From positions 23,622,001 to 23,686,000 of the forward strand of contig CM060733.1 in assembly GCA_030704615.1 (NCBI GenBank): DNA of 64,000 nucleotides, written 5' to 3'. Source of the DNA: Takakia lepidozioides (taxonomy: Eukaryota > Plantae > Bryophyta). Within the stretch, counting starts at the first letter, position 1, and each line of letters opens with the position of its first letter. This document shows, piece after piece, positions 3,010 to 64,000 of the stretch. The position numbers were made by a program, and so were the translations under genes. The notes under the pieces are model-generated. The model worked only from the letters and a program-made list of their open reading frames with translations, was not told the DNA's origin and made no database searches.

Positions 3010-3082
3010 GCTCACCGCTCATGCGGCTCATGCGGCTCATGGCTCATGGCTCATGGTTTCTGCTCATGAAATAGTAAACCTC
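3010..3082 (+). repeat. Terminal (TIR) region with GCTCATG subterminal repeats
   Basis: Tandem GCTCATG(CG) units followed by GAAATAGTAAACCTC. The reverse complement occurs at 11944 and a related sequence at 22211. Confidence 0.75.
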
Positions 3083-11754: not shown

Positions 11755-11882
11755 GCAATACTCCTTACAACTGCATTTGGCCAACAACTCCGAAACGAAC
11801 TTGGTGGCAGTGTGGCAGTCACCACACACCCGAAGATTCTTCACGAGATGTAGAGACATCCCTGCAGCTCATCAGCCCAAAA
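11755..11882 (-). pseudogene. DYW deaminase domain fragment (PPR editing-factor relic)
   Basis: Manual translation gives LVKNLRVCGDCHTATKFVSELLAKCSCKEYC, which matches the DYW C-terminus with an internal deletion. Confidence 0.8.
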
Positions 11883-15345: not shown

Positions 15346-15605
15346 TTTCCGACATTCCAGCAAAATAAGGCACCGCATTTCCGCCCGGGTGAGACCTTAA
15401 CACTCTCCAGAACGGAAATGCGGTAACGCATTTCCATCCAGCAAGCATGGTATATGAAGGTGGAACGGAAATGCGGTACCGCACTTCCGTTCTGATTGAG
15501 AATCATGAACAAAGGGAACAGAAATGCGGCACCGCATTTCCGTCCGAGTCGCACTTTCCGACATTCCAGAACGGAAATGCGGCACCGCATTTCCGCCCGG
15601 GTGAG
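15346..15605 (-). repeat. Inverted segment of the 53-bp palindrome array
   Basis: Reverse complement of the 212-bp higher-order unit seen at 21447-21817. Confidence 0.85.
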
Positions 15606-18600
15606 AGGTGCCGGTCGGAAAACCGCCCAGCCCACATTGAGGCACTTGTTACAATGCCATCCACACATTATGACATGGCCCTTCAGATGTTGCGAATGAA
15701 AGCATAACGAGAGTTTGCAGAAAAGCATACAACAAGATTCTGCATACCTGTCCCACAGATGAGGTCGAGCACTGTGCCCTCCACGTCAGTGCATGTCTCC
15801 ATAATTGTCTGAATGAAGGCACGGCTCCGAGTGCGTGAATACCACAGGGGTTCAGTTGAAGTGAGGCTATGAGGGAGAAGTTCCGTGGGAACGTTGTTGA
15901 ACAGGACATCGTAATCGATGGGGTCGCAGTTCGGGTCAACCAACAATCCCTCCTTCCGGAAAGCAAAGGTGGAGTTCTCCTTCACAAAGCAGTATGCATC
16001 GAACTACTTCGTCTGCATACAAAGTGGGGGACGATTAGAAATCGAATGCGGCACCGCATTTCAAGACTCCTAAGAAAATGAAAGGACGAGTGCCAAGGTC
16101 GTAATTACCTTCTTCCCTTCCGACCGAAGGCCCAATGTGTTGATGCACGTCCACTTCTTCTTCATAATTGGGACGGCGCTCTTGCGGGTCCACTTCGCAA
16201 TTCCTGTCTGCGTATTTTTGCCTCTGCTCGCCAGGACAACCACACAGCCTCTGTCGTCCAACACCATGCGGGCGAGCCCGAATCCTTTCTTCCAAAAGTC
16301 CTCGGAGTACCTGTTCCAAGATGGCAAAGCTTGAAGTCCTTCCACAGGCTCTCCGTCTGGAATATCCAAGATGATCATATCGCAAGACCAATCGGTGGCA
16401 TTTCCGCCCCTCCTGCAATCCTTGTCTGCACACACCCTCTCAAGGAACAAGACCATCTTCAGAAACCCGGGGGTGTCGGAAGGCTCTTCGGCAGCCGCCT
16501 TCTTTAGTGCTCTGCCCTTCAGACCCTCCATGGTCTTCATGTATGCCAACTTGGTTGCCCGTCCATCCAAAGCCGCCAAGAAACTCTCATTGACACACTG
16601 GACTACTGTATCGGGATCCACTTTCGGCCTCTTCATTTCCACTGGCTCGAAAGGGTGCCCCCCCGGGGGGTTGAAGAGTGTCTTCTTTGCCGAGCCAGTT
16701 CTCGTCCCTCTCGTGACAACGGTGGGCACAGGGGATTTTGGCTCCGTCTCGGGGGGTGGGCTGGTTGCAAAGTCTCCATCGGAGTCCTCTTCCTCACCCT
16801 CTACCTGCACTATCTGTTTCTGCTTCTTCGTTTTCTTGGGTGTCACAACTGCTGCTCCTTGCTGCCGAGTCCGCTTCTTCGACCCCTTCTGTTGAGCCTG
16901 CATAGCTGCATCCACCGTCTTTTGTGCCATTTCAGCTGCCTTTCTGGATTGTTCCAGAGCAGCAGCTTCCTTTGCCGACTTTGGCCGAGCAGGGACACGT
17001 CTTTCCTTTCTCTTCTCTTCTGCTTTCGCGTGCAGATCTTTCTCAGACTCGTCAACAATTCCTCCAGACATGTCCAGGTACCACGGGCATCCAACCAGAT
17101 GCGCAGCATGCCATTGTTTTTGTATCTCGGGTGTGTAGACACAGCTTGGGCCCGCCACGGTCCAAGCCATGAAGAACGGGGGCTCTTGAGCCAGGGCCCC
17201 TGTCTGAAGAAGCACGTATTTCATATACTTGCAGGGCAGTCAGCATGCGTGAGCAAAAGTTGAGACCAACGTACTCGTAGAGTGCAACCGAAAACATAAA
17301 ATGCGAATGCGGTGCCGCATTTCCCAGACAAACCTCATTACCAGGCTTTGCATACAAGGACAGCTGGGCTTCACCTGTAAACAATTCGCATTGCAGCTTT
17401 TCCTGCTCCCTCCTGATGTGTAAACTCCACGCTCATTCTTGCTGTTTGCAGCTCCCTGGCGAAGAGGTTGTCCTTGTAAGCACATCTGAAACGTGTCACG
17501 TAGTCTTCCAATGTCTGTGTTCCATCCCATTTGACGTACAAGCCAAACAAATTTGTATGCATAACGACTTGCTCCTTCGCATTCGTCATTACCTGCGATT
17601 CCCACATGCATTGTCACGTAGCAGTTCAGGGAATTCATTTCAGAAAAGCAAATCTAGGGAAGTACCTTGAATTACCTGGAACCACCAAGTCATGCGGTTG
17701 AGCCACACATCCACTGCAGGGTCGGAAACTTCGAGTGGAAAAGACCACATTGTCCTTATACTCTCCGATGCATTCCAGATCGACAGCCACCATGTCTGCC
17801 ATTTCCGATCCAATGTCAGGAGCAGGAAGAAGAGTGGCTATTGCTAGGAAGGAACTTCAGTGAATTGAAACATCACCTTCTCTTTCGCTTCAACACATGC
17901 CGTTGAGAGGTGATGCAGTTTCTCCAACTGCATGGTCGGCTGCATGGCCCGAGAATAGTGTTTTGCAATCTCGGGGATGAAGTCCTTTCCAAGTGCCGGA
18001 TCTGCAATGGCCACCAGCTTCACAAGCTTTGACTTGTATTTCGTTCTGGACTTGACCCCGGCTTCCTTCAAGTGCTCAATCAATGACTGCAACGTTTTGA
18101 CCTGCCCCTCACTTTCCATGAAGAAGCGTTTGGCATGGGCCAAATCCAGCTTGATGTTTGACTGCCAACAAAAACATGCAGAAGCGTTACATTCGATTCA
18201 TGTGGAAAGATTACCGGAAATTGAGGAAGGATGAGCAGAGGGAAATGGGAGGACGACTTACTTCGTATATGACCTCCACCATTCCATCCATAGTGAGACG
18301 ATACCATGTCCGGTCAGTTTTTGCCACGGCTTTCTGAATGAGCTCGGGCTCCAACATTTCCGCGAACATGTGCGGATCAGTGAGACCAGTTTTCCTCACC
18401 CTGTACAGCATATGTGCCATGTGGGTATGCACGTACGCATTTTCAGTGACCCTGCAAGGCACACTCTTCAGTTCAGTCCACGAAAGCACGGAAACAAAAC
18501 AGATTGGAAACTGAAATGCGGCACCGCATTTCGAACGTGCATGGGAGGGTATGAGTATCTTACGAGTTGAGGTCCGCCATGGCATTCTTGAGCAGGGAGG

Positions 18601-19774
18601 AGTCTGCCGCCTTCACCTTGAGGATGACACACTCCACCATGTAATGCCAGCCAATGTGCTTGGCATGGTTCTGCTTGATGTACTCCCACCAGGCGAGAAG
18701 TCGGTGATTCCCGTCCCACACAAAGAACATTTTACCCGACATATGGCCGAAGTCGGGATCACCCTTCAGTGTTGCCTCGAATTCGTCGTTGCGGGTGTGC
18801 CAGTGGGTATCCCATGTTGACAATTCCTCCGCAGTGGGTCCACGAGATTCGCCGTCCTCATTCTCAAGGGAAACGTAGAAGGCTGGCAAACCTAGACGGT
18901 ACCCTTCTCGAAATGCGAACTTGAGCTTATCCACATCTCCGGGAAGTGCCTGCCTGACGATGGAAAGGGAGACCATGCGACAGAGTGGGATTCGAAGAGT
19001 CCGCTGGAATACCCTGCTGCCCAGAACTCTGCCAATGCTACTATGTGTCTCCTCCAACATTGTATCCGCTGCACTTTGGAATTCCTCCGGAGACATTTCT
19101 GCTGGTGGCGGCAGGGGCTAAGCAGCTTGAGCATCCCCAACTGGAGCTGCACTCTGGGGAATCTTTGCGGACAATTGTGCAATTGCAGAGGCCTCCTCCG
19201 GGCCTTCAGTGGTCAGGTCTTCCTCAACTGTGGTCAGGTCTTGCTGAGAACGTTGAGAGGCAGCACCCTCCTCCGGTACCAGATCTCCGGTTGATCCCAT
19301 TGGCTTCGCTGCAGCAGGTTGGAAATCAAGCAGGAACTGGGCTTTAGCTCGTGGAATCGGTTTTGAAGACTGCTCTGCCCTCCCCCTGATTGCCTTGTGC
19401 TTCCTCATTCTTGCAGGTGAAGGTGTCTGCTGCAATTGAATCTGCTTCATTCGCCTGGGTGGGGGGGAAACGGCCTGGTCCGGTTCAGAAACAAGTTGAA
19501 GGACGGGCTGCTTCTTCTTCGTCTTTGCTGGAGAAGGGCTAGACCCCTGCTGGCGATTCTCCATGACCTTTGAAGGCGAGTCGCTCTCTAGGGCTTTGAA
19601 CTGCAAGGACTTGCCCTTGGAAGCCGCGTCCTTGAAACGCACAGGACTAGGACCGGCAGGAAGACCCGTGCTCGCGGATCGGCTGGGTGTGCGTGCTGCA
19701 GCTAGCTCCACGGACTCTTCGGATTCCTGCGATCCCTCCAGCACGTCCACCTTTCCGGTTAGGCATGCAAACAT
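15606..19774 (-). pseudogene. ParB/Srx-like domain plus beta-class amino-MTase-like gene, copy B (multi-exon, damaged)
   Basis: FFVWDGNHRLLAW at about 18690-18730, DMIILDIPDG at about 16353-16382 and TVLDLICGTG at about 15747-15775. TAG at 19118 where copy C has CAG, acceptor near 15646 mutated to AA, truncated at 15606. Confidence 0.7.
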
Positions 19775-20376
19775 CTTCTGCAGTCAAGTCTCCTAGCATA
19801 CAGTCTAAGAATTGCAGAAGAAAAATGAGGCGGGTTTCGGTGCTCGATCAGCTGGCGAATCCCGATAGCACGGAGCTCTCACTGGTGGTTGGGTTGCCTG
19901 CGTGGCCTGATGCTGCGAGATGGCAATCTCCTCCTGTACACGCATCTGCTTCCTCCCCTTCGGCATTGGCCTACGTCCGAAGTACAATTTTCGGAGCTTG
20001 CGACGATGTCTCTTCTCTGGTGCACGCACTCCCTCCCTCTCAGGTTCGAGCATAAGAAGAACAGAGACAGGGAAAAGGGGCAAAGAGTGCAGATGGAAAG
20101 GGCGCGAGAGGGGTGACTGAGGAGACACGACAAAAGCAGATGAAACGGTGGTGATGCAGCACTTGGGTTCGAAAGGGTTGGAGGAAAGTGTCTCCTCGTG
20201 GACTTTGCATCATTACGAAATTCGAATCGTTCAGGATACGTCTGCCGTCCGAAAAACAAACATCATTATCCAACGGTCAGGCCGCGCCGCCTCATGCCAC
20301 TTCAGTCAGATAGAGTGCAGACACATGCCGCAATTCCGATGCTCCACGTGTTCAAATTTGGAGTTGGAGTGAAAAT

Positions 20377-21817
20377 GCGAATGCGGCGCCGCATTTCCGT
20401 TAAGTACCATCACAGAGCTACACATCCGTGCTTGTTGGAAGAAAATGCGGCACCGCATTTCCGTTCCACCTTCACATACCTTAGTTGTTGAACGGAAATA
20501 CGGTGCCGCATTTCCGTCCCACAGCTCAATGTATGAGATACAAAAGGGAAATGCGGCGCCGCATTTCCGTTCAGGAATGTCGAAACGTGCGATTCGGACG
20601 GAAATGCGGCACAGCAATTCAGTTCCCGTGGTTCATGATTTTCAATCTGAAAGGAAATGCGGTACCGCATTTTTGTTCCAAAGCTCTATGCCTCACATAC
20701 AAAAAGGAAATGCGGCGCCGCATTTCCGTTTTGGAATGTCGGAAGGTGCGACTCCGACGGAATTGCTGTACCGCATTTCAGTTCCGATGTTTCACGATTT
20801 TTCATAATAACGGAAATGCGGTACCGCATTTCCGTTCTGGAGAGTATGAAGGTCTCACCCGGGCGGAAATGCGGTGCCGCATTTCCATTCTAGCTTGTGA
20901 GGGAGGTGCGACTCGGATGGAAATGCGCTGCCGCATTTCAGTTCCGATGGTTCACGATTTACAGTCAGAACGGAAATGCGGTACCGCATTTCCGTTCTGG
21001 AGAGTATGAAGGTCTCACCCTGGCGGAAATGCGGTGCCGCATTTCCGTTCTAGCTTGGGAGGGAGGTGCGACTCGGATGGAAATGCACTGCCGCATTTCA
21101 GTTCCGATGGTTCACGATTTACAGTCAGAACGGAAATGCGGTACCGCATTTCCGTTCTGGATAGTATGAATGTCTGAAGCGGTCGGAATTGCGCTGTCTC
21201 AAGCGATCGGAATTGCACTGGGCTCCATGCATCAGATACAAATCGGAAATGCGGCTCCGCATTTCCGTTCTGGAATGTCGGAAAGTGCCACTCGGACGGA
21301 AATGCGGTGCCGCATTTCTGTTCCCGTTGTTCATAATTCTCAATCAGAACGGAAATGTGGTACCGCATTTCCGTTCCACCTTCACATACCGTGCTTGCTG
21401 GATGGAAATGCGTTACCGCATTCCCGTTCTGGAGAGTATTAAGGTCTCACCCGGGCGGAAATGCGGTGCCGCATTTCCGTTATGGAATGTCGGAAAGTGC
21501 GACTCGGACGGAAATGCGGTGCCGCATTTCTGTTCCCTTTGTTCATGATTCTCAATCAGAACGGAAATGCGGTACCGCATTTCCGTTCCACCTTCACATA
21601 CCGTGCTTGCTGGATGGAAATGCGTTACTGCATTTCCGTTCTGGAGAGTGTTAAGGTCTCACCCGGGCGGAAATGCGGTGCCGCATTTCCGTTCTGGAAT
21701 GTCGGAAAGTGCGACTCGGACGGAAATGCGGTGCCGCATTTCTGTTCCCTTTGTTCATGATTCTCAATCAGAACGGAAATGCGGTACCGCATTTCCGTTC
21801 TGGAGAGTGTTAAGGTC
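20377..21817. repeat. Array of about 27 palindromes GGAAATGCG-N4-CGCATTTCC at a 53-bp period, with 160-bp and 212-bp higher-order units
   Basis: Starts at 20441, 20494, 20547, 20600, 20653, 20706, 20759, 20812, 20865, 20919, 20972, 21025, 21079 and 21132, then every 53 bp from 21245 to 21775. Confidence 0.95.
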
Positions 21818-22210: not shown

Positions 22211-22664
22211 GGGGGCTGCTATTTCATGAGCCATGAGCCATGAGCCATGAGCAGAGTCGTAAGTGTGGAAAAAAACATGAGCAGCACTATTTTCCGGAAA
22301 TGAGTGTCCGCGGGAATAGGGTTTAGGGTGCCACGGTCATAGGGGGAGAAGGACCTCCCGATGAAGGAGGTTCGGCAATGTTATTTAGAATTATATATTG
22401 AAAGGCAATGTTACGCGAATGGTAGGGTGGTACTGCTCTGTACAATGGGGGCCCATTTCAGCCTACCAGCCACTTGCAAAATCCACCCACACACCCAATC
22501 CCAAACAAAATGAGCAATGACGCATTCTGGGAACGATGGACACAGAATAGAATAAAAAGAGGGCACAATGAGGTTTTTATTGATCCACATGAATTGCATT
22601 TGAAGCACGTCTACTGTGCTGATTGTGCCATCAAATCTTGAGCCCTGTGCTTACTGAATACAAG

Positions 22665-23339
22665 TCACGTTGTCAATGGGACTTCGACTGCTCTCAGAAC
22701 TAGCTCATGAGTCATGGGGCTCCTCCATGTAAAGTCGATTGCAGCCGTTGTACCGCCCCTAGTGATGTTCACCACAATGTCCTGCCCTTCAATCATACCA
22801 CCATCGAATATGGAAATCTTCACGTTTTCGTCGTCCACACCAATGCGAATGTCCCCATACAATGGAGAAGAGGAGCGCACTCCTCGAGGAGAATAGGTCT
22901 CTCCGATGGAGTCCACCCACGTCCAGTGGCAGCAGTTCCACCGCAACAGCATAGCAGTGCGCCTTCTTCTGCATGGGTGACCGTCGTAGCTGGGAAATTC
23001 GGAATCGAGGATGCGCAGGAGCCACGGACTCCTCAGACCAAGATCGTCACCCCGCTCGAAGGCGTAGTGGCCTACGATATACTCAAAAGCCACCAATGTT
23101 TCCACAATCGAACCAGTATCTTCTGTGTAATCTGTGTACCAGATAACAATGTCTCCCGATGTGGCCGAATACATTGCATAATCGATGCCTCCAAAGGGGC
23201 AGTCGTCCCGATTCCGGAAGCACGGCATCCTTGCAAAGGAGGACCTGAGGACGACTTGGATGCCGATGACCTTGCGGACAGCTACGAAGCCCTTAGATTT
23301 TGGAAAAGATACGAAGCGGAAGAGCAGTCCGGCCTCCAA
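22665..23339 (-). CDS. Hypothetical transposon cargo protein (224-aa open frame, possibly with an upstream exon)
   Basis: Open frame with globular-protein-like composition. No family recognised; a 244-aa antisense ORF overlaps it. Confidence 0.4.
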   Translation of the reverse strand: MEAGLLFRFVSFPKSKGFVAVRKVIGIQVVLRSSFARMPCFRNRDDCPFGGIDYAMYSATSGDIVIWYTDYTEDTGSIVETLVAFEYIVGHYAFERGDDLGLRSPWLLRILDSEFPSYDGHPCRRRRTAMLLRWNCCHWTWVDSIGETYSPRGVRSSSPLYGDIRIGVDDENVKISIFDGGMIEGQDIVVNITRGGTTAAIDFTWRSPMTHELVLRAVEVPLTT

Positions 23340-23842
23340 AATGGAGCATCTGGGTCACACGTACCCACCGACGGAGGTGGAACGTGTTCATCACGCCAGC
23401 GGTGGATGAACCCATACATCTTTCTCATCAACAAGTTATAGTTTGAGATCTGCCACCGAAGTCCATCCCCCCAGATGGAAATTCGGCGCCGCATTTACAT
23501 CGAAGAGGGGATGGACTTCGTCGTGTCCAGTGGCTATCGGCCCACCTGGCAGTGAGTGCCCATAGTTTGCGCAGCAGGGTAGGAAACTGAAACGGCTACA
23601 TTCATGCAGCAGCCAATCTTCATCGGTCCAGGATCCTGTACGGGGGAAATTTAAATGTGCCCTGGAGTGTGCCCTGGAATGTACCTCACTTCTGTATGAC
23701 TGTGTTTCATTGTGTTGAATAACTCTCGGATTTGGCCCACTGTTTACAAATTGATGTCTCATTTCTACAATTTGTCTGTCCGGTTGAATAAAGCAGAGTA
23801 ACCGGTATGTGAGTCATGTGTCAAGAATATACCAGAGTAACG

Positions 23843-24140
23843 CCATGTCGGACATTGAAATGCGGCACCGCATTTCCATGTCGGCATGGAAATGTGGGGC
23901 CGCATTTCCATGTCGGCTTGGAAATGCGGCGCCGCATTTCCATGTCGGCATCGAAATGCGGCGCCGCATTTCCATGTCAGCATCGAAATGCGGCACAGCA
24001 TTTCCATGTCGGACATCGAAATGCGGCACCGCATTTCCATGTCGGACATCGAAATTCGGCACCGCATTTCCATGTCGGACATCGAAATGCGGCACCGCAT
24101 TTCCATGTCCGACAAGAAAATGCGGTGCCGAATTTCCGTC
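23843..24140. repeat. Nine tandem 32-33-bp units, each containing the family-1 palindrome
   Basis: Unit CATGTCGG(A)CATCGAAATGCGGCACCGCATTTC. Further dispersed palindromes continue to about 24732. Confidence 0.92.
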
Positions 24141-24920
24141 CAGGTACACGAAATACCAACACGGGTCTATAAATTGATCAGAAAACGAGGTTGGCATTGC
24201 AAATGCGGCGACGCATTTCCAGCTTGGCAATGGAAACTTCTTTTTGGACAAGGGAATGCGGTACCGCATTTCCGTCCAACACTTCGAAAAGTGCACCTAT
24301 TTCCGACCAGCGCGATGGAATGCGTTACCGCATTTCCGAGAGAGGGTCTGCAGATGGACAAATTGCGATGTCCGTTCTGGAAATGCGGCACCGCATTTCC
24401 ATGTCCGTCATCGACTTTTTTTTACAATGGAATGCTGTGCCAATTTTTGCTGATGGGTCTGCAGTTCGAACAACGACCATCCCCAATATGGAAATGCGGC
24501 ACCGCATTTTCAATCCCGCCATGTCGGCCTCCTTGTGCGACCTCCTTGTTCGACCTCTGTAAGCGTTGTCGCATCCATGCAATGAGCGGGAGAGGCCAAA
24601 ACTGGCGTGTGGACAAAGGAAATTTTGGAAATGCGGCACCGCATTCCCAATTCAGATTACTTTTTACTATGCCAACATTGAAATGGAAAAATTAGTCCCT
24701 CCCCTGTCTTGGAAATGCGGTGCCGCATTTCCAAAAGAGGTTCTTAGAGTTGCCAAAATTTTGGAAATGCCCTGACCCATTTCTGATTTTGGGAGCGTCC
24801 TGGTTTGGGCGATTGTGTGGCTGGAATGCACACTGGAGAGGGGTCACGAATGTCGGGCAGAATTTTCTTTATATACTCTGGAAGAGAATTTACATTTACA
24901 GAGACTTCATTAAAATTCTA

Positions 24921-27900
24921 TTAATCTTGAAAATCATCCGAATCCTCATCCTGTTCTAGACTGTCCTGCTCCTCCTCCACCCCCTCAGTGCCTCTCTCAT
25001 CTCCAGCGGACTGCTCGTTGGCCAGGCTTTCGAAAATCCCATCTTCCCCTTGCGGAACTGTCCATCTCACCTCCGTTGGGTCGTCTTCCTCCCTGTCTGC
25101 GTCGCTCTCATCCGCTGAATCACATATGTACTTTCGTACCCGTCTACCTGTCTGAGCTGCTGCCAACTCTTTCCTTATCCTTCTGTCCTCCCTAGCCCTC
25201 TCCAAAATCTGCTCTACTTTACTGGGATTCTCACTTCTTCTAATCGCTGTATTTGCGAGTTTAGCTGCATAACTAGGAAGGGAGTAGTCCCTCACCGGGC
25301 TCGTCATGAAGTCGGCCCTCGCAAAGAACGGGACATTCTTCCTGGCAGGAAGTGTAGGCCCTACATGTTTCGACACGGACCCTGCAATCCTGCACATGAC
25401 AATCATCAACGAGACTAATGAGAACCACAGTCGGGAAATTCCTTTGACATAAATGACCCAGAAGGCTTTGCAAACTTACAATGTTTGCACTCACTCGTAT
25501 TCCGGGTTCTCCTCTGCATCAATGTCCACTGTGTCTTCCTCGGACTCCGACGAATCCGAGGAGACTTCCGCTCTGTCGGGAGCCTTCACATTCCGTTGCA
25601 GCCCCTCCAGATGGGATCCCCACACGGATGAATCCTCCTCGTAGGCAAAGAGGTGCCGGTCGGAAAACCGCCCAGCCCACATTGAGGCACCTGTTACAAT
25701 GCCATCCACACATTACCACATGGCGCTTCAGATGTTGCGAACTACATCCTAACGAGAATTTGCAGAACAGCAGAGATCAAGATTCTGCATACCTGTCCCA
25801 CAGATGAGGTCCAGCACTGTGCCCTCCACGTCTGTGCATGTCTCCATAATTGTCTGAATGAAGGCAGGGCTCCGAGTCCGTGAGTACCGCAGGGGTTCCG
25901 TTGAAGTGAGGCTATGAGGGAGAAGTTCCTTGGGAACGTTGTTGAACAGAACGTCGTAATCGAGTGGGTCGCAGTTTGGGTCAACCTTTCCTCCCTCCTT
26001 CCGGAAAGCAAAGGTGGAGTTTTCCTTCACAAAGCAGTATGCATCGAACTGCTTCGTCTGCATACACAGGGGGAAAACGATTAGAAACCGAATGCGGCAC
26101 CGCATTTGAAAGCACCCAAGCAAATGAATGGACGAGTGCCAGTGTCGTAATCACCTTCTTCCCTTCCGACCGAAGGCCCAGTGTGTTGATGCACGTCCAC
26201 TTCTTTTTCAGAATCGGGACGGCGCTCTTGCGGGTCCACTTCGCAATTCCTGTCTGAGTGTTTTTTCCTCTGCTCGCCAGGACAACCACACAGCCTCTGT
26301 CGTCCAACACCATGCGGGCAAGCCCGAATCCTTTCTTCCAAAAGTCCTCCGAGTACCTGTTCCAAGATGGCAAAGCTTGCAGTCCTTCCACAGGCTCTCC
26401 GTCCGGAATATCCAAGATGATCATATCGCAAGACCACTCGGTGGCATTTCCGCCCCTCCTACAATCCTTGTCTGCACACACCCTCTCAAAGAAGGAGACC
26501 ATATTCTGAAATCCTGGGGTGTCGGAAGGCTCTTCGGCAGTCGCCTTCTTCAGTGCTCTGCCCTTCAGACCCTCCATGGTCTTCGTGTATGCCAACTTGG
26601 CTGCCCGTCCATCCAAAGCCGCCAAGAAACTCTCATTTACACACTGGACTACAGTTTCGGGAGCCACTTTCGGCCTCTTCATTTCCACCGGCTCGAAAGG
26701 GTGCCCCCCTGGGGGTTGAAGAGTGCCTTCTTTGCCGAGCCAGTTCTCGTGCCTCTCGTGACAACGGTGGGCACAGGGGAGGCAGCCTGCGTTTGGGGGG
26801 GTGGGCTGGTTGCAAAGTCTCCATCGGAGTCCTCTTCCTCACCCTCTTCCTGAACAGGCTGTTTCTGCTTCTTCGTTTTGGCGGGTGTCACAACAGCTGC
26901 TCCTTGCTGGCGAGTCCTCTTCTTCGACCCCTTCTGTTGGGCCTGCACAGCTGCATCCACCGTCTTTTGTGCCATCTCAGCTGCCTTTCTGGATTCTTCC
27001 AGAGCAGCAGATTCCTTTGCCGACTTTGGCCCAGCAGGGACACGTCTTTCCTTTCTCTTCTCTTCTGCCAAGGCGTGCAGATCTTTCTCAGACTCGTCAA
27101 CAATACCGCCAGACATGTCCAGGTACCACGGGCATCCAACGAGATGCGCGGGATGCCATTGTTTCTGCATCTCGGGTGTGTAGACACAGCTTGGGCCCGC
27201 CACGGTCCAAGCCATGAAGAACGGGGCTCTTGAGCCAGGGCCCCTGTCTGAAGGAGCACGTATTTCATATACCTGCAAGGCAGTCAGCATGCGTGAGCAA
27301 AAGTTGAGACCAACCTACTGGCAGAGTGCCACCGAAAACATAAAATGCGAATGCGGTGCCGCATTTCCGAGACAAACCTCGTAACCAGGCTTCGCATACA
27401 AGGGCAGCTGTGCTTCACCTGTAAACAATTCGCATTGCAGCTTTCCCCGCTCCCTCCTGATGTGTAAACTCCACGCTCCTTCTTGCAGTCTGTAGCTCTC
27501 TGGCGAAAAGGTTGTCCTTGTACGCACATCTGAAACGTGTCACGTAGTCTTCCAATGTCTGTGTTCCATCCCATTTGACGTACAAGCCGAACGAATTTGT
27601 GTGCATTACGACTTGCTCCTTCGCATTCGACATTACCTGCGATTCCCAAATCCATTGTCACGTAGCAGTTCAGGGAATTCATGTCAGAAAAGCAAATCTG
27701 GGGAAGTACCTTGAATTACCTGGAACCACCAAGTCATACGGTTGAGCCACACATCCACTGCAGGGTCGGAAACTTCCAGTGGAAAAGACCACATTGTCCT
27801 TATGCTCTCGGATGCATTCCAGATCGACAGCCACCGTGTCTGCCATTTCCGATCCAATGTCAGTGGCTGGAAGAGAGTGGCTATTGCTAGGAAGGAAATT

Positions 27901-29863
27901 CAGTGCATTGAAACCTCACCTTCTCTTTCGCCTCCACACATGCCGTTGAGAGGTGATGCAGTTTCTCCAATTGCATGGTCGGCTGCATGGCCCGAGAATA
28001 GTGTTTTGCAATCTCGGGGATGAAGTCCTTTCCAAGTGCCGGATCTGCAATTGCCACCAGCTTCACAAGCTTTGACTTGTATTTCGTTCTGGACTTGACA
28101 CCGGCTTCCTTCAAGTGCTCAGTCAATGACTGCAACGTTTTGACCTGCCCCTCACTTTCCATGAAGAAGCGTTTGGCATGGGCCAAATCCAGCTTGATGT
28201 TTGACTGCCAGCAAAAACATGCAGAAGCGTTACATTCGATTCATGTGGAAACATTACTGGAAATTGGGGAAGGATGAGCAGAGGGAAATTGGAGTACGAC
28301 TTACTTCGTATATCACCTCCACCATTCCATCCATAGTGAGACGATACCATGTCCGGTCTGTTTTTTGCAACGGCTTTCTGAATGAGCTCAGGCTCCAGCA
28401 TTTCCGCAAACATCTGCGGATCAGTAAGACCAGTTTTCCTCACCCTGTACAGCATATGTGCCATGTGGGTATGCACGTACGCATTCTCAGTGACCCTGCA
28501 AGGCACACTCTCCAGTTCAGTACACGGAAGCACGGAATCAAACCAGAATGGAAACCGAAATGCGGCACCGCATTTCGAACGTGCTAGGGAGGGTATGAGT
28601 ATCTTACGAGTTGAGGTCCGCCATGGCATTCTTGAGGAGGGAGGAGTCTGCCGCCTTGACCTTGAGGATGACACACTCCACCATGTAATGCCAGCCAATG
28701 TGCTTGGCATGGTTCTGCTTGATGTACTCCCACCAGGCGAGAAGTCGGTGATTCCCGTCCCACACAAAGAACATTTTTCCCGACATATGGCCGAAGTCGG
28801 GATCACCCTTCAGCGTCGCCTCGAATTCGTGGTTGCGAGTGTGCCAGTGGGTATCCCACGTTGACAATTCATCGGCAGTGGGTCCACGGGTTTCGCCGTC
28901 CTCAATTCTCTATGGAAACGTAAAACGCTGCCGATCCCAGACGGTACCCTTCTCGAAATGCGAACTTGAGCTTATCCACATCTCCGGGAAGGGCCTGCCT
29001 GACGATGGGAAGGGAGACCATGCGACAGAGTGGGATTCGAAGAGTCCGCTGGAATACCCTGCTGCCCAGAACTCTGCCAATGCTACTGTGTGTCTCCTCC
29101 AACATTTTATCCGCTGCACTTTTGAAATCCTCCGGAGACATGTCTGTAGGTGCCGGTAGTGGCTGAGCAGGTGGAGCATCCTCAACTGGAGCTGCACTCT
29201 GGGGCCTGTGTGCGGGCAATTCTGCCATTGCAGAGGCCTCCTCCGGGCCTGCTTGCTCATCGGTGGTGAGGTCTGGCTGCGAACGTTCAGCGGCAGCACC
29301 CTCCTCCGGTACCAAATCTCGATCAACGGTCGATCCCATTGCCTTCGCTGCAGCAGAGTCGGCCCCAACATCTGCAGGCGGGAAATCCTCCAGGAACTGA
29401 GCTTCAGCTCGTGGAAGCGGTTTTGCGGGAGATTGTTCGCCCGTCGCCCTGATTGCCTTCTGCTTCCTCATCCTTGCAGGTGAAGGTGTCTGCTGCAATA
29501 GAATCTGTCTTCTACCCTGCTGCTTCATTCGCGTTGGGGGGGTGAATCGGCCTGAGCCGGTTCAGAAGCCAGTAGAGGGACGGGCTGCTTCTTCTTCGAC
29601 TTTGCTGGAGAAGGGCCCGACCCCTGCTGGCGATTCTCCATGATCGAAGAACGCGAGTCGATCTCTGAGACTTTGAACTTGCCCTTCGAAGACGCGTCTT
29701 TGAATCGCAGAGGGCTAGGCCCGGCAGGAGTCCCCGCGCTCGGGGATCGGGTGGGTGTACGTGCTGCAGCTAGCTCCTCGGACTCTTCCTGCGGCTCTTC
29801 GGATTCCTGCGATCCCTCCAGCACGTCCACCTTTCCTGTTAGGCATGCAAACATGTTCTGCAT
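24921..29863 (-). pseudogene. ParB/Srx-like domain plus beta-class amino-MTase-like gene, copy C (full span, several single-base frameshifts)
   Basis: DGNHR at about 28745-28760. Splicing the GT-AG intron 25691-25792 gives TVLDLICGTGASMWAGRFSDRHLFAYEED. Acidic C-terminal tail ends at 24921. The frameshifts may be assembly errors. Confidence 0.7.
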
Positions 29864-30475: not shown

Positions 30476-31582
30476 TGCGAATGCGGCGCCGCATTTCCGT
30501 TAAGTACGATCACTCTGCTACACATCCGTACTTGTTGGAAGAAATGCGGCACCGCATTTCCGTTCCACCTTCACATACCTTAGTTGTTGAACGGAAATAC
30601 GGTGCCGCATTTCCGTCCCACAGCTCCATGTATGAGATTCAGAAGGAAATGCGGCGCCGCATTTCCGTTCCCACTTCACATACGTTAGTTGATGAATGGA
30701 AATGCCGTGCCACATTTCCGTTCGGGAAAAGTAGAGAGTCTCACCTGGACAGAAATGCGGTGGCCTGTCGCATTTCCGGTTGGAAAGGTTGAAGGTCTCA
30801 CATGGATGGAAATGCGGCAACACATTTCCGTAGCACAGCTCCAGGCCGAATATACAAACGAAAATGCGGCGCCGCATTTCCGTTCGAGAATGTCGGAAGG
30901 TGCGACTCGAACGGAAATGCGGTGCCGCATTTCTGTACCCGTTGCGCACGATTTTCAGTCAGAATGGAAATGCGGTACCGCATTTCCGTTCTTTACAGTA
31001 TTAACGTCTGACGCTGGCGGAAATGCCTTCCCGCATTTTCGTTCCACAGCTCCATGCCTCACATACAAAACGGAAATGCGGTGCCGCATTTCCGTTTGGA
31101 ATGTCGGATGGTGGACTCCGACGGAAATGCGGTACCGCATTTCAATTCCGATGTTCAGGATATTTCATCAGAACGGAAATGCGGTGCCGCATTTCCCTTT
31201 TAAATCTAACACTCCGTTCTGGAATGTTGGAGGTGCGACTCGGATTGGAAATGCGCTGCCCCATTTCAGTTCCGATGGTTCACGATTTTCAGTCAGAACG
31301 GAAATGCGGTACCGCATTTCCGTTCTGGAATGATGGTAAATGCGACTCGGATGGAAATACTTTGCCGCATTTCAGTTCCGATGGTTCACGATTTTCAGTC
31401 AGAACGGAAATGCGGTGCCGCATTTCCGTTCTGGGATGAAGATGGGTAGGTGCGTGACTCGATGAAAATACGGTGCCCCGCATTCAGTTCAAGATAGTTC
31501 ACGCGATTTCAGTCAGAACGGAAATGCGTGCCGCATTTCCGTTCTGGATAGTGTGAATGTCTCAACCGGTCGGAATTGCGCT
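30476..31582. repeat. Second copy of the 53-bp palindrome array
   Basis: Colinear with 20377-21190, with more small indels toward the contig end. Confidence 0.9.
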
Positions 31583-56175: not shown

Positions 56176-57284
56176 GACAGCATGGATTTCCTTAATTCTG
56201 GGATGCAACTTGTCATCTACAAAAAAGGTGTGCACCCTGTTGCCAACCTCAATGCAGAAGCAACCTGGCTCCCTTCTAACCCCTCTAACCTTCACCATTT
56301 TCTCACCTTTGCAGTATCATCCCACCTACCAGCTGCAGCATAGATGTTTGATATCAACACATAAGTCGCGGCATCCTGTTCATCCCACTTGAGGAAAGAT
56401 GTTGCCGCACGTTCAGCAATCTCCACATTGTCGTGGATTCTGCAGGCACCAAGCAAGGCCTTCCACACCACAACATCTGGATTGATTGGCATTTTATTAA
56501 TCAGGTTCACTGCCTCATCCAGTTGTCCCGCACGTCCAAGAAGGTCCACCATGCAGCCAAAGTGCTTTACTGTCGGAGTAACACCATGATCTTGACTCAG
56601 GGAATCGAAGTAGCGTCTTCCTTCATTCAGTAGGCCAGTGTGGCTGCATGCAGAGAGAACACATATAAAGGCGATATTGTCCGGCTTCAAGCCGTTCTTT
56701 TACATTCCTTCAAATAGTTGCAGGACCTCCCTATGACAACCATGTTGGGCATATCCTGCGATCATCGCATTCCACGACACCACATTTTGTTCAGTCACAT
56801 TGTCAAATATTCCCTTTTCATCCTTAATGCACCCACATTTCGCATACATGTCCACCAGGGCAATGTCCAGAATGATATTTGGTACAATTCCAACTTTGAG
56901 GATGTCACCATGCACCTCTTTGCCCTTTTCCAGGGCTGCCAAGCTTGCACAAGCATTGCAAACTCACACAAATGTGATGTTGTTGCGCTTCACCCCTTCC
57001 CCCATCATTTGCTCATAGGTCTCCAAGTCCTCCCGCCCACGCCCCTGCTGTGCATATCCTGCAAGCATGGCGTTCCATGACACCAAATCTCGTTCAACCA
57101 TATTGTGTAGCACTCCCTCCGCATCCTCAATGCTCCCACATTTGGCATACATGTCCACAAAGGTATTGTCCAGAATCACATCTGGTACAATTCCAGTTTT
57201 GGCGATGCAACCATGCACATCTTTGCCCTTTTCCAGGGCTGCAAGGCTTGCACACGCACTACAAACGCACACAAATACACACAC
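56176..57284 (-). pseudogene. PLS-class PPR protein with E/E+ domain, frameshifted and truncated
   Basis: VDMYAKCG, VSWNAMIAGYAQHG, CMVDLLGRAG, WKALLGACRIH and REPGCFCIEVGNRVHTF spread over different frames. Confidence 0.9.
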
Positions 57285-58894
57285 ACTATATGTCTGCTGC
57301 TGGGAGGCGGGTTTGAAGATCTAACATCAGCGTAAAACATTATCGTACCTTGTAAAAGTCGGTGGGACCGATGCGTGAGAGAAAACTGCCCTCGGGAACA
57401 TGAACCACCATGAATCGTATTTCAAATGCATCAAAAACCTGCCAATCTCCGTTGCTAATGAATTAATTCAAGAGAGCTTACCCTAGGCCGAGTAAACGAG
57501 TACTAAGATCTTTCATTGTATATCAGGAAAGTTGCCATCAAGGATCATATCTCCAGCCAACAACTCAACAGGTGATTGCACGCCAATGGTCGCCAGACCT
57601 ATTCAGTAATTATGGCATTTCAATAGAAACGATGTAAACAAAACTAGTTGCATCTCAACATTCTCCATTACCTGTGCCAAGGGGGTGGCCTGAAGCCTAT
57701 GCGAAGACAGACCCGGGAAAAGAGATGGTCCGGAATCAAAGTGATAGAATAGATTGAATGTCAAAAAAATGTGAGAAGATTCGCCTGCAGTCTCTATCCC
57801 TAGATCATAACGAAACTTCAGCAGGTCTATACACGACTCGTGTGAGCTGTGTCTTTCAGGTTCTCGTGCTTGACATGTAGTTTGTTAGAGCATCTCCACC
57901 GGGGGTACACTAAACACCACTGCACGGTAACCTCCCGCGGCCTCGAACACTCCCCTCCCCCAGCGGCAACTCCATCAAACTACCCTGCACATGTAATTTT
58001 TGATGACGTGCCTTGCTGCGGAGGGACCACTTGGCAGACACCACCTTACAGACAGGCATCTTTGATCTTCGTGCACACGGTACTTGCCCGCTAGAACTGT
58101 CCATTCTCTACGGCTTCCAACCATATCTGGCTCCAATATCACATGCTGTCAACTTTGCCGGAATCATCGTACACTTCTCTTTCAACATGAACAGTTCCAA
58201 CTTCAAGGTTCCAAGCTTCTACAGAGAACGTCCTCCTGCACAACAACGAGACCATTGCCACCCGCAACTTTGCAGAGGGGCCTTGACTGGGGCGCATAGT
58301 AGAATTTTACTATATCCGTAGTACGATCCATTGGACAACTGGGGCAATGCAAATTGTAGTGCAGAGGTTGGAATATGTGCACTGCAAAACCGTGGAGTAC
58401 GAAAGTAGACAATACGAAACTACACGGACAGAATATCTGCTTGAATGATTGGCGGAATATACTGACAAAGATGATGAGGCTCGGCACCGACTGCTGCATG
58501 AAAGTCTCAAAGGGATTGTCATGCCCACTGCCAGTCATGGGCTCTGCAGAGCACCTATTGGCCTAGCTGCAATGGTCAATTTGCCCACTGCAATTTCGGC
58601 GCGTACATACCGTTGGAAAGTACCGTTACATTGAAGACGTCTTCGGGAAGGTATCCAAAGCTCTACATGTGTCGATTTATGCGATACCCGACCTATCAAT
58701 AGTGGACACATGTCATTTCCTCCGCTAGCCTGCAGGGTAGATGAAGATGAGCACACGAAAAATCCAGTAGGCCCTAAGTTGACAATGTAAAGTAGGCGTG
58801 GGCGCGAGTTTTTCATTCATCCCAAAATTCCAATCGCCGCTTCAAGTACACCTTTTGCAAAGAATCGACATTTCAGAGTGACAAACCGTCCAGA

Positions 58895-61806
58895 GTGGCG
58901 AGCAAGCTGGAGGGCTTTAGCACAGACAGGAGTGCGTTCAAGCGTCGCAGAAGGAGGCAGTCTTTGTATTTCACAATTGAGAGACAACGTAGGAAAGCTC
59001 AGGAGAGGATGAAGGAGAAGAGGTTAGGTCGAGAGTTTGAAAGAATGGCAGAGGCATTTAGTAGAGGAGAAGATCGGGAAGAGGGAGAGTTAGTTTTTGT
59101 GGCTGGTGACGAGAATGAGGAAGCGAGCAAGGATAAGGGAACGCAGACGGCGGCCGCAACAGACGCTGAAGCCCAGACTGAGGACAAGCTGGGCAATGAT
59201 GCAGGAACCCTAAGGTTGTTGGTACCCTGCGTTTCTAGTTCTTCTCCACTCCATTCACTGCGAGAAACACAAGAAGAAGCCGTAGCCATCGCGGTGAGCA
59301 GACCTTTACTCCATTTTCCTGCAGTTGAAGCAAAGCTCTTTCATTTGATTCAGGTGTAACCATTCTGCTCGTATGCAGCCTCTCCGAAACCAGGTGGCGG
59401 CGATGGAGAAGGGCAACAGAAGGGATGGATCTGCACCATCAGGCCAAGGCGAGAACCCGACAGAGGTTTGTTAATGCTACTCACATCTGTTTTCGAGTAC
59501 GTTGTCCAAGGTTGTGTCAACGAAACCCTGAAATGCTTTCTCTTTTGCATCATATGTGCTTGCATACAGAAGTAAGAGAGTGCAGGACGCCAGGTTTGAG
59601 AGAGCAACATCAGGCTTGCAGTGACGGAAGCCTGTTTCAGAGGTCTCCAGCGGCTTCACATTTCCCATTTTTCTGAATCACCTTGATTATCTGGACTGAA
59701 GCAAAGGCCCCCTCTCATAATGAAAGTAGCGAAACAATGACGTTTTCAGACCTCTAAACTAGGCTTGCGTTGACGCAAGCGTAAAGTGGAGGCGCGCAGA
59801 ATTAATAGCTTGAGCCACTGAATGGCAGATCTTGTATGGGATTCATGATGTGTGAGAAAGAGAGGAGGAACACTAATGGAGGAGTATGTTTTGAAGTCGA
59901 TACATGCTTGCGTTGACGAAATAATGAAACTCAGAGATTGGTTCTTCCCCATTTAAAAGATTTCCACTCTCGGAATGTGTTGCATATGGGTGCTTGCAAG
60001 ACCTCTATATCAGGCTTGCGTTGACGCAAGCCTGATTTCTGAGGCTGGAAGTAACCCATATTTGAATGGGAGTTCTATGTGTTTCTGTTTTCACCTGTTT
60101 CTTATGTCGAGCAGAAGAAGAGGAGGAAGGGCAAAGAACCTGCAATGGCGTAAGCTGTCCAGACAGAAGTGCAGGACACTGATATGGATTACAAGGGCAT
60201 GGCCATCAAGATCAGATCAGGGTCCAAGGTGAAATCAGGACAAGTAATCCGGTCCATGATGGTTATGGAGGCGGGTATGTGTTTGGAACCCCAGTGTTTT
60301 ATGTTTCAGTAGGTGATTCCAATGGAAACGAGAAAGTGGTTGACGAGGGATCATGGCCAAGTGGGATAACTGGTGGAATGAAGTGAATTTGGAGTTCGAA
60401 CAGTCTCTGCCCAGGAGTCTCGAGTTGCAGGTGTATAGTAACAAGATGTTCTTTGTTTGGGACGGGAACCACCGCCTGCTTGCTTGGATGGAGTACATCG
60501 ACAATATGCATCAAGAAGAGAAAGATTGGCACTACTCAGTTGCACGACATGCGTTTTGGATCCGAATAGGAACTACACCCAGCTGCTAACAGCCATGCAT
60601 GATATAAACAAGCGAGTTCTCTCTACATTCACCAGATTCTACTACGAATTCACATTACACTCATTGTCGTGAGGACTCTGTCTTCCATTTGTTCACACTG
60701 GTTTGATTGTGCAGGCAGAGTCTTCCCATGTTACAACAAACCTGGTGCACACATTATCCAGGATGCAAAAGCTCGGAAGAATGCCCATGTCCAGCTTCAA
60801 GACTATTCTCACCTGAGGCCTTCGAGAAGTGCGAGACCTCCAAAAAGGCAGAGACATGGTACACACTCACCAGGGATGCGTTCCTGGAGTACATGTACAC
60901 GGTAAGTCCTGCATTCGAGAGTTGTTTTCTTTTCATACCAGAACATCTGGTCAGGTTTGCGTTGACGCAAGTTTAATTCACTGTGGAGTTTGGGCTCAGG
61001 TTTTCCAGTACACATTTGGGTGACTGACCTCTCTTTTGACCTTGTCCTTGTGTTGGGTAGCAAGAAATTGCTGATGCGGGTGAGCGGGGGAAAGCGGAGT
61101 ACTACGGAAAGACTCCAGAGAGTGAACGCACTGCCTTCGGAATAGAGACGGCAATGACTTTTCACATGAACGAATTCCGAGGGAAGGTGGTGATAGCGTT
61201 CACCAAACAGCTGCGTATAACTGATCCTGGTCTTGGCTCACAGTTTCAGGAAGAGGTCCGCATTCATTGGAGCAAGAACATGAAGCCTGAAATGACACAG
61301 GAGAAGCTGCACCGGCTTGCTATGGCAATGGTAGAGCCTGCAGTAAAAGTGCGTTGGCTTCAGATTTGGAACTCCGAGCCTGTTATTTGCCAGGCAAAAA
61401 GTTTTCCCATGGGCGAGAGGAACGCCACCACTGGAGTCGTAACCCCTTTTCAGTGACCAAGTGTGGGACATCTGGATACATAAAGCCACATTCTGAGCAC
61501 ATGTAAGAATTTATGTATACAGCTCTTCATTACTTGGACTGAGTGTGTTTGAGCTATACATTAGATTCTAATAGAGTGTTCCACGTGCCAGTTGGAGGAG
61601 AGGGCTCAGGAGGTTATGGAGAAATCACTCACAGACTTCAAGATCGTGGTTGGTACACCAGAAGAGTCATTCGAGACCTGGATAAGGAGGTGGAAAGAAA
61701 CCATGCGTTCTTCCGGGAATTCGCTGTGGAAGGTGGCATAAATCGCTCAAACTTGTTCGATGCGCAGCATAATGGCGAGTAGGCGATGAAACGAGTCATA
61801 TACAGG
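58895..61806 (+). pseudogene. Diverged paralog (D) of the ParB-like transposon gene
   Basis: KMFFVWDGNHRLLAWMEYI at about 60445-60500, then AMHDIN, TWYTLT, ITDPGLG..EKLHRL, WLQIWN and KRVIYR, colinear with the exons of copies B/C and with matching intron positions. The 5' boundary is uncertain. Confidence 0.75.
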
Positions 61807-62124
61807 TTTGTTATTCATGCATTAAAATTTTGGAGTGTTGTATTCGTCCTTTGGAACTGCCTCTATTGAGGATTGTGTTAACGCAAGCCTGCCGATCCTG
61901 GTCATTATGTCTTGCAGTCTCCGGTTACCTTGGGTCAGGGATCAGGCTTGCGTTGATGCAAGCCTGATTTTGGGTGGAATGGAACTTGGTGAATCCAGCC
62001 GAGTGTGTTATAGGGGTCTGTTGTCAGGTTGCGGAGTTCATGGTTGGTGGTTTCAGGGTCCCTCAAGATTGTGAGGAATGTGTCTTTTTCGGGTCTGCAG
62101 CAGGCTTGCGTTAACGTAAGCCTG
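59611..62124. repeat. Dispersed family-2 palindrome CAGGCTTGCGTTRACGCAAGCCTG (8 copies)
   Basis: Copies at about 59611, 59760, 59903, 60011, 60952, 61868, 61943 and 62101, some degenerate. Confidence 0.85.
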
Positions 62125-62719
62125 GTTCATGACAGCCGTCAAAAGCCAAAAGCCAAAAGCCAAAAAATAAAAAACGCCTTCCCGAAGGGTAGCCATTGCT
62201 TTTGTTGAGGTGACAGGGAAAACAACTTCTTGGGTATCAAGGCTCATGTTCCTGACCCGGGATCAGGCATCAAACAAGTGTTTCTGTCTTCTTCTCCATC
62301 GATGGCTCAAATCAAGGTCTGTCTTCAATATCCGGAGATCGATGTCATGGCTCTTCTAAAAGGAGACAGGGCATTTGTTCTGGAAATGCCCACTGGAGAT
62401 AAAGTTCAAGGGAAAGTGGAGAAAAGCTTTGAGCTAGACAGTAATGGTGACTACCTTACACTATACATCAAGGGAGAGACTTTGGAAGGACAGCTTGCCA
62501 CACAAATCACAGCGACAATCATCTACGATGCATATCAGGCTTGTCGTGCGCATACATATCACTACACAACTACATCGCTGTCCAAAACCACACAACACAT
62601 GTGCACATCAAACACTAGTCTATCACTAGTGCACCACTAGGCTGCCACTAGCGACCACTAGTGCAGCCACTAGTCCACTACTGTGTTGGAATCTCGTGGT
62701 CACACCTCTGCCAGGGTTA

Positions 62720-64000
62720 AGTAGGGCGTTCGCCCTCTTTCTTGTTATCCTTCTTCTTTCCACCCTTTTTTTTCGGGCTCGGATTCACAACCGGTTCCTT
62801 TGCTCTCAAAAGCCGGAGATCTTTCAACTGTAGCTACCTATCCGTAAGAGGTGCAAGAGCCTCGGCATTGTCATTCAAGTTCCGAAGGACGTTCTCCGCC
62901 CAGGGTGTGGATTGTTTGGGGCAATCCAGGTACCAGCCACAGTCTTTCAAATGGGACCTGCTCCAGTCCTCCAGAATTCCCGATGTGTACATAGTTGTGT
63001 CCGGATTTGTCTTTGCCCAACTGTCAATGAAGAATGGGTAGGCACTTAGAAACCCCCTTGGAAAAAGCACTCCGTGGATATATCTGTGGTGACAACCAGA
63101 AAAGAAATCAACATATGTACAAGACATACATGATAGCAGGTAACAAACCTTCGTTGCAACTATCTAAATACAGGCTATACCCATTCTTGCGTCCCATGAA
63201 CAACCCGCGTACATTCACTTGTCAATGCCGGATAATATCGATGAGGATTGGGATTGATTGAAGTAGCGGCGACAGTCTTGTGCACCGTAGTGGGGTAGAT
63301 GGCATCATGGGCCATGCACATGACAACTTTTTGTTTTTGCTAATGCGGCGGGATGTGTAGTACATGACTAATTGTTTGCTCGGGGCTAAGCACCAAAGGG
63401 TACCATGCATGCTTGCATTGTGGCGATGATCTTGATGCACATAGCTCCCGCCATCTTCACAAGATGATGTATCCCAACTACCGCAAATTTCTTCCTATAA
63501 CCAGACCAGGTGGTAATGTCTTGTTTTTGCCTAAAGACAGAGATTGGGTGGAGGACTGTTGTGCCCAACTGGATCTTCATGCGAACCGGGATTTTGTCAT
63601 TGCCAAGACATCCTTGCAAGCCATTTTGTGACCTTTTTCAAAACGAATTAGAATTTGGTATCCATCGGGAAAGACCAATGAGGAGGTCAATTTCGGTACC
63701 TTTGGGAATCTGAGTGAAGTGAAGAAATTGCCCTGGCTTGTCATCTGGCCTACGCGAAGGGTAGAGCGACTGAGGAATGTGCGGGAAAGCTTTGGGACTT
63801 GTTATAACAATCTCCCAACATTCTTCTTGTGGGACACCAAGCTGGAGTAACTGGTCGATTGACCGAGTGTCTTCAATAATAGGGGTGTCTAGCGCAATCG
63901 CCAAGCTCTCCATGGTCTGAAAGCCCATCCATAAGTAGTACATCGTGGGTTCCAATGGTGTACGTTGGGGGAGATGTTCACTGCGGCCTCTTTTGTTTGG
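62720..64000 (-). pseudogene. Fourth, highly diverged paralog (E) of the same gene (middle exons)
   Basis: YPFF..W..YT..I..W..HL..C.WYLD (62920-63045) and WSFPM..KWLARMSW (about 63600-63680) match PFF.W..YT..W..HL.GC.WYLD and WSFPL..VWLNRMTW in copy B. Confidence 0.6.

Follow-up and report, generated by a model that had tools for sequence, protein, structure and literature searches.

Three copies of a ParB-like gene in the window

We analyzed a 64,000-nt stretch of contig CM060733.1 of the moss Takakia lepidozioides (the window), which holds three copies, B, C, and D, of a gene encoding a predicted ParB-like accessory protein of Mutator-like element (MULE)-type transposons. B and C, 87% identical across 6 kb, are each split into several exons, of which one is ParB-like and the others are helical or methyltransferase-like. 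D shares 51% identity with them across a 63-aa core, and the motif WDGNHR occurs in all three copies (at 18715, 28759, and 60461, respectively). With its frameshifts, in-frame stops, and inverted next exon (Table 1), D is a pseudogene, and no methyltransferase or transposase exon accompanying it was found in the window. The inverted exon was considered as a fourth gene copy and rejected, because its upstream exons are absent on that strand.

D is accompanied by a palindrome of its own, the family-2 24-mer CAGGCTTGCG-TTRA-CGCAAGCCTG. When up to 6 mismatches were allowed, the window contained nine such sites, all in 59507–62124, against an expectation of 0.02 and a maximum of one in 100 shuffles; a stricter scan returned six. 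An earlier note on this DNA had listed eight sites at 59611–62124, all of which were found, and the ninth, at 59507, is more decayed than the others. Four sites lie in identified introns and five upstream of the ParB exon, where some have a common short flank (gacctct), which suggests local duplication. The palindrome was not found elsewhere in the window, nor was a palindrome of its type among 80 other loci (0 matches). Copies B and C go with a different palindrome, family 1, with the consensus GGAAATGCG-N4-CGCATTTCC; its 72 sites at ≤3 mismatches and 75 at ≤4 all lie left of 31430, and neither scan placed one near D, as had been claimed. The same note described a 4-nt spacer; four nucleotides do separate the core arms, but the outer two are complementary to each other, as G..C for family 1 and T..A for family 2, leaving a free center of only 2 nt (YR).

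Table 1. Positions of the gene copies, palindromes, and element parts in the window
Feature	Position	Strand	Basis or remark
D ParB/Srx-fold exon (WDGNHR = GxxRxxA-type motif)	60264–60607	+	frameshifts near 60345 and 60540; fold predicted on B exon
D exon 2, helical region	60715–60901	+	in-frame stop or frameshift near 60810
D GT-AG intron, 159 nt, with family-2 site 60952–60975	60902–61060	+	sequence
D helical-region exon(s)	61061–61420	+	sequence comparison
D exon A, conserved part	61708–61806	+	sequence comparison; D-specific stop at 61780
Intron after exon A, three family-2 sites (61868, 61943, 62101)	61808–62124		intron comparison
Exon B from the same gene family, in opposite orientation to D, without its upstream exons	62849–63088	−	sequence comparison
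Five family-2 palindromes upstream of D ParB exon	59507–60034		sites 59507, 59611, 59760, 59903, 60011
Copy B, ParB-helical-methyltransferase-like gene	15745–19783	−	sequence; intron family-1 sites 18512, 17303, 16042
Copy C, same gene	24920–29863	−	87% nt identity to B; intron sites 28556, 27347, ~26088
Family-1 palindrome array, 53-bp unit, upstream of B	20377–21800		sequence scans
Similar family-1 arrays	30477–31430; 15361–15595		sequence scans
Array of 32/33-bp units	23843–24137		sequence scans
MULE-like transposase with Cys/His-rich N-terminal domain, CxxH-bearing DDE-like core, and SWIM-like finger at the C-terminus	12600–15341	−	sequence
Second transposase copy	1–2231	+	sequence
Element end, short GCTCATG repeats	11944–12010		like ends at 3017–3082 and 22211–22252

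Relatives of D were surveyed among contigs of a DNA sequencing run (X1), in which 442 records cover all 30 bins of 58000–62130, with 91, 118, 126, and 107 records in the identity bands; their summed depth does not equal copy number. Several lesions of D (the indel near 60540 and the stop at 61780) are absent from these relatives, the entire X1 depth at 61780 reading C. Meanwhile, contigs from two runs that we guessed to be RNA, less than 90% alike to D, bridge 60898 to 61283 with 225 letters, equal to 384 minus 159, which hints at spliced transcripts of related copies, not of D. No RNA record of D itself is listed, which has no bearing on its expression. Judged from its sequence, D belongs to a multi-copy MULE-like transposon subfamily, of which it is a dead copy, and is not a host paralog. 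The view of D as a diverged paralog in the manner of Noc is replaced by that of a decayed transposon copy, and a host partition or Noc-type paralog was rejected because the family is multi-copy, pseudogenised, and transposase-linked.

Two other kinds of sequence adjoin D. A short sequence at 62540–62640 is shared, with 81–93% identity, with 9859–9957 and 10343–10402; it belongs to another repeat family and adjoins both D and a Gypsy-like element. Interrupted gene fragments, presumably of the PPR/DYW family, lie at 56292–57290 (−), beside the D upstream region, and at 11800–11940 (−), beside the end of element B. Together with the spliceosomal introns and the named relatives of the gene, such fragments suggest that the host is a non-seed land plant.

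Palindrome arms follow the protein clade

A metagenome scan for related loci confirmed 256 of 274 candidates, and the best 80 of the 256 were analyzed; they collapsed to 41 groups, which together with B, C, and D gave 44 non-redundant rows. A de novo search found repeated 20–22 bp palindromes in many loci, while 13 of 15 shuffled controls gave none. When loci were scored in a way tolerant of CpG decay, at least two palindromes counted as type I were present in 25 of the 44 rows, shuffles gave at most 0.02 such sites per 7 kb, and the far flanks contained none in 112 kb. On the protein tree, the motif-by-locus matrix was block-like. Among the 25 labelled rows with at least two type-I sites, motif distance followed protein distance (Mantel rho 0.74, 0 of 5000 permutations), and the motif labels required 10 changes on the tree against a minimum of 13 in 300 shuffles; these numbers are inflated, as the arms were fitted on the very loci that were afterwards labelled and gene and sites are physically linked. 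The predictions that motif type tracks protein clade and that the sites are confined to ParB-like genes were both borne out. Because a gene and its introns are inherited together, however, clade tracking alone is expected and is no proof of co-evolution.

The frame common to the 11 motif groups is YKCG-N-YR-N-CGMR, with C/T mixtures accepted for its C and G/A mixtures for its G where copies are old. TGCG-N4-CGCA, which the earlier note took for a family-wide core, is restricted to three of the 11, namely families 1 and 2 and the L042 clade (CATRTGCGT), the TGCG state requiring three changes on the tree; TTCG or YTCG takes its place in the remaining eight (for example, AACTTTCGG, TACTYTCGG, AGCATTCGG, and TRGTTTCGC), and the wider core is YKCG-N4-CGMR. 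Separately, a second clade-restricted palindrome type was noted among type I, in L032, L010, L030, L069, L027, L072, L042, and L053, approximately 0.7–2.5 kb upstream of the match; it has a 2-nt center and the arms RCCCAAGCT, TTGGAGCTT, TGAAGAACC, GGTTTTCAA, and AAAATCAGA.

Site placement was counted for 145 sites from end-to-end scans of 29 loci, with partial exon detection. None of the 145 lay in detected coding sequence, which makes up 12% of the central 7 kb, and 104 were 0.5–2 kb upstream of the ParB exon end. Many occurred in tandem units of about 51–53 or 32–33 bp. Of the eight transposase-bearing loci, seven had sites, and in these seven none was found in or beyond the transposase. The homologous intron between exon A and exon B was compared in 22 loci (its limits drawn by hand for B, C, L053, and L001), and 12 of them contained a site matching their own clade (shuffle p at most 0.015). 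These 12 sites fall into five groups (B/C; D; L027/L072; L032/L061; and the L033 group) whose introns are unalignable with one another (z of −1.3 to 2.7 between groups versus 34–55 within), and each site was best or joint-best for the motif of its own clade. Since, from one clade to the next, the two arms vary in concert amid introns that are unalignable, we infer that the palindromes are protein-binding sites under selection.

Two alternatives do without a cognate element-encoded protein. The palindromes might be mini-repeats, free of selection, that slippage and gene conversion have spread within each subfamily, their clade tracking being hitch-hiking. The tandem units and the common flanks upstream of D are in keeping with this, as are the clade tracking that linkage by itself predicts and the 19 of 44 loci without the motif; nevertheless, we consider it very improbable, as isolated single sites recur in the same intron of five unalignable groups with the arms of their own clade, the symmetry and CG-N4-CG core are kept while the arms change, and sites are missing from both coding sequence and far flanks. 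Hardly better placed is the proposal that they form RNA or single-stranded DNA hairpins, serving as signals for splicing, small RNAs, or replication, or that a host transcription factor binds them. The sequence would allow a 9–10 bp stem closed by a 4-nt loop, and the sites are intronic or 5′; however, arm sequence and not just complementarity is kept within a clade, the center is a free YR, and a host factor would not yield different arms for two subfamilies of one genome, as families 1 and 2 have on the same contig.

A predicted ParB/Srx fold joined to a methyltransferase-like domain

A search with the ParB exon returned 475 clusters at E ≤ 1e−3 and 156 at 1e−10. The 10 member proteins looked up comprised five from Riccia sorocarpa, two from Adiantum nelumboides, and three without a name, and a 1207-aa member retrieved 27 long homologs, all 27 being Riccia paralogs. 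As far as sequence comparison goes, the family is one of multi-copy MULE-like transposons of non-seed land plants.

The ParB exon of copy B was modeled with a predicted local distance difference test (pLDDT) score of 92. In a structure comparison, all eight matches with Z ≥ 5 had the ParB/Srx fold, the best being KorB (Z 8.0, root-mean-square deviation 2.4, 89 aligned), and Foldseek with the same model returned Srx, PadC, Noc, and ParB (best E 5e−3, none ≤1e−3). DGNHRLLA is present in B, C, and D, and DGNHRxxA is the commonest form in the related loci, 31 of 83 decayed extracts having no readable motif. The predicted fold and the GxxRxxA-type motif both support the description of the protein as ParB-like. 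Bacterial ParB has the consensus GERR at the place of DGNHR. The 355 residues after the ParB exon were modeled as all helical (pLDDT 68); no helix-turn-helix was recognized there, fold searches giving only generic helices at that model quality.

At the C-terminus, PF01555 was matched in two of four full-length proteins scanned (E 5e−5 and 1e−5), both scores being below the Pfam cut-off (23.7 and 25.9 versus 26.7 bits). The putative methyltransferase-like domain has a D-x-P motif (IV) before the S-adenosylmethionine-binding motif I (IVIDFAGGWG / VLDLICGTG), the order seen in beta-class N6A/N4C methyltransferases. Its motif IV reads DIPD, DIPE, DLPT, DMPS/T, DVPR, or DFPI and not [DNS]PP[YFW]; an aromatic residue occurs only in one Adiantum protein (DVPF), and PP is absent throughout. 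Because the catalytic motif is D-x-P-x and not DPPY, a role in writing N6-methyladenine or N4-methylcytosine is no likelier than one as a non-catalytic reader or shield.

Other searches yielded little. In Pfam, no ParA ATPase partner was seen among the longer open reading frames (ORFs) scanned (40 from neighboring loci and 14 from the window); the 14 window ORFs gave no useful match, and the best hits of 52 aligned ParB-exon members were weak ones to DndB and DUF1015. A word search with the ParB exon found nothing, PDB sequence searches gave no match, and of six prokaryotic and 10 viral pattern matches sought as relatives, none was confirmed. A language-model search with the ParB exon (18563–19039, −) retrieved clusters of which part bear the label DUF3723 or ParB_N, among them a fungal cluster (score 0.95, 170 shared features) with DUF3723 on 31%, and another search gave weaker similarity (0.84–0.85) to fungal clusters with DUF3723 labels. 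DUF3723 (PF12520) is an accessory protein of fungal Starship transposons (10.1101/2021.12.13.472469). The likeness to the ParB exon comes from the language model, with no Pfam DUF3723 match among the 52 aligned members, and an open-access search found no literature joining DUF3723 and ParB; that DUF3723 proteins may carry a ParB-like domain is a lead only.

The transposase and the element ends

A MULE-like transposase lies upstream of the accessory gene on the opposite strand in nine of the 20 loci whose upstream sequence reaches 6 kb or more (9 of 41 overall), and the usual layout, read from sequence, is a transposase, an array, and the accessory gene, the two genes being divergently oriented. 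CxxHW and an E motif are visible in the transposase, a pattern associated with DDE MULE transposases. SWIM was matched in Pfam with E 6.8e−5 in one of 19 transposase homologs and 0.063 in the window copy, and no Pfam MULE family matched the window transposase or the 19 homologs scanned. The three element ends in the window read inward GAGGTTTA/GGGGGCTG-CTATTTCATGAGC, and CTATTTCATGAGC is common to the transposase side and the accessory-gene side, from which we infer an imperfect terminal inverted repeat (TIR). Long TIRs were not found in eight related loci. The window copies are rearranged and include an N gap, and no intact element shows both ends, so that no 8–11 bp target-site duplication is readable; copy B looks like a rearranged element that is inverted internally and truncated at its 3′ end. 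The array segments at 15346–15606 and 21445–21708 are inverted relative to each other and 96% identical. Element C contains an intronless 229-aa ORF at 22665–23354 (−), between the 33-bp array and the end, with no Pfam match and no homolog among the 80 loci.

Of the two element-encoded candidates for a protein that would bind the palindromes, we favor the putative ParB fusion, because sites are crowded at the 5′ end and in the introns of its gene and the element ends carry a different repeat. The alternative is that the palindromes are transposase sites, at which the Cys/His-rich N-terminal domain activates or synapses cognate copies, with the ParB-fusion gene merely lying among them. The main array separates the two divergent genes, and on the transposase side the terminal repeats also contain ATGCGG. 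The N-terminal pattern may resemble GCM, and the family-1 half-site AATGCGG the GCM site; Pfam gave no GCM match, and the half-sites of most clades (for example, AACTTTCGG) are unlike that site. MULE transposases can indeed be sequence-specific activators of cognate copies, but the chromatin immunoprecipitation peaks of the AtMu1 MULE transposase are reported at TIRs (10.64898/2026.08.24.746577), and the palindromes are internal, all three ends bearing the different GCTCATG repeat. Together with the ParB-gene-centered placement and the absence of sites in or beyond the transposase in seven loci, this makes transposase binding unlikely, if less so than mini-repeats or hairpins. In a comparison of transposase and ParB trees for module swaps, the transposase fragments barely overlapped. 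The report of transposase at TIRs and that of red-algal ParB genes beside inverted-repeat arrays (10.1101/2025.02.11.637652) likewise favor the ParB fusion.

Proposed mechanism and comparison with known systems

We propose that the ParB fusion binds the CG-N4-CG palindromes of its own clade as a dimer and thereby keeps cognate MULE-like elements unsilenced, D being a decayed copy; this is the reading toward which we lean slightly. The predicted protein, with its ParB/Srx-fold, helical, and methyltransferase-like parts, would dock on palindromes in the introns and intergenic arrays of the element, a dimeric binder being suited to them because they are 20–24 bp palindromes with a free center. 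Binding would keep cognate elements unsilenced by self-recognition of the VANC kind, which by analogy is the likeliest purpose because the site distribution mirrors that of VANC targets in VANDAL elements.

Several observations weigh against this reading. Besides the inflated statistics, the PF01555 scores below cut-off, the unusual motif IV, and the lack of a recognized helix-turn-helix, 19 of the 44 loci have fewer than two type-I sites (some are short contigs), and the exon A/exon B intron has no site in 10 of 22 loci. L045, L041, L006, L013, and L038 form a supported ParB-gene clade with long flanks in which no type-I palindrome was detected; family-1 sites also occur 3′ of the transposase (2483, 12402, and 12498); and the second palindrome type may be the site of a second protein, implying more than one binder. 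Three members of the L045 clade bear unrelated dense intronic repeats, and dense arrays in L013, L014, L038, L064, and L068 were left out of the type-I motif counts.

The closest published counterparts are transposon accessory proteins. VANC of the Arabidopsis VANDAL elements binds motifs particular to each family, which lie in introns, intergenic DNA, and tandem repeats, and motif and protein diverge together (PMC5735166). As described there, VANDAL is likewise a MULE with an accessory gene and family-specific short non-coding motifs, and in our family too a family-specific motif is enriched in the non-coding parts and tandem repeats of the element. In contrast, VANC motifs are 8–9 nt and non-palindromic, palindromes going unmentioned in the paper, and the plant-family protein has ParB and methyltransferase-like domains; any demethylation or activation by it is a proposal by analogy. 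No VANC-associated Pfam families turned up in the general Pfam scans, in which no direct VANC comparison was made. In the red-algal Plavaka elements, PAG3 combines ParB-N with a putative 2-oxoglutarate oxygenase and PAG2 combines a PF01555 methylase with SET; PAG3 ParB-domain genes lie beside inverted-repeat arrays across Plavaka families, and the authors propose self-binding and self-modification (Bostrychia preprint, 10.1101/2025.02.11.637652). Common to the two systems are a large DNA transposon with an accessory gene for ParB-N, a methylase of PF01555 type, and tandem inverted-repeat arrays alongside, and in this respect the concept is partly published already. Going by the published description and not by sequence, the plant family differs in having ParB-N and the methylase-like domain in one protein, a land-plant host, a MULE-like transposase, sites that are also single in introns, and arms that vary with protein clade. 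For this land-plant fusion with clade-by-clade motif variation, we found no published description in the open-access literature.

The likeness to ParB/parS, Noc/NBS, and KorB/OB extends to the N-terminal ParB/Srx fold, the GxxRxxA-type motif, palindromes of similar size, and paralog-specific arms; unlike bacterial ParB, the protein is eukaryotic, intron-containing, and transposon-borne, with neither helix-turn-helix nor ParA seen. Bacterial-type amino-methyltransferase domains are also known in green plants and algae: Marchantia DN4MT1 has TSPPY, with ParB not mentioned in the cited part of that report (10.1101/2021.02.12.428880), and chlorophyte-type Dam bears a helix-turn-helix of ParB type, not ParB-N (Iyer et al., PMC4738411). 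The transposon family differs from both in having D-x-P-x and ParB-N.

A bolder extension, which we offer tentatively and think more doubtful than probable, is a transposon-run eukaryotic ParB/parS-like system in non-seed land plants, in which a nucleotide-gated clamp would load at clade palindromes and slide for kilobases and the methyltransferase-fold module would mark the DNA or shield it from silencing. Both the sliding of the clamp and what the methyltransferase-like domain does in the element are conjecture. The VANC work, in the part cited, leaves open how a short motif lets one protein act on a multi-kilobase element, and the red-algal idea has no sequence-level test in the section concerned. 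If the extension holds, it would, with red-algal PAG3 and perhaps Starship DUF3723, represent a general self-recognition device of giant eukaryotic transposons; ParB clamps would act on eukaryotic chromatin, and dozens of natural protein–site pairs could serve for reading the recognition code and as orthogonal targeting modules. At least 11 motif groups pair with protein clades, and two of the groups (families 1 and 2) share a contig, so that cross-binding, sensitivity to methylation at the two core CpGs, and the sliding of a clamp are directly testable in such pairs.

Elsewhere in the window, a Ty3/Gypsy-like retroelement occupies 2939–9612 (+). Between its protease and reverse transcriptase, ORF pieces at 5551–6160 contain an ILENV stretch, which is reminiscent of a C5 DNA methyltransferase motif and which had no Pfam match. 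The retroelement carries a C-terminal PHD finger (Pfam E 5e−11).

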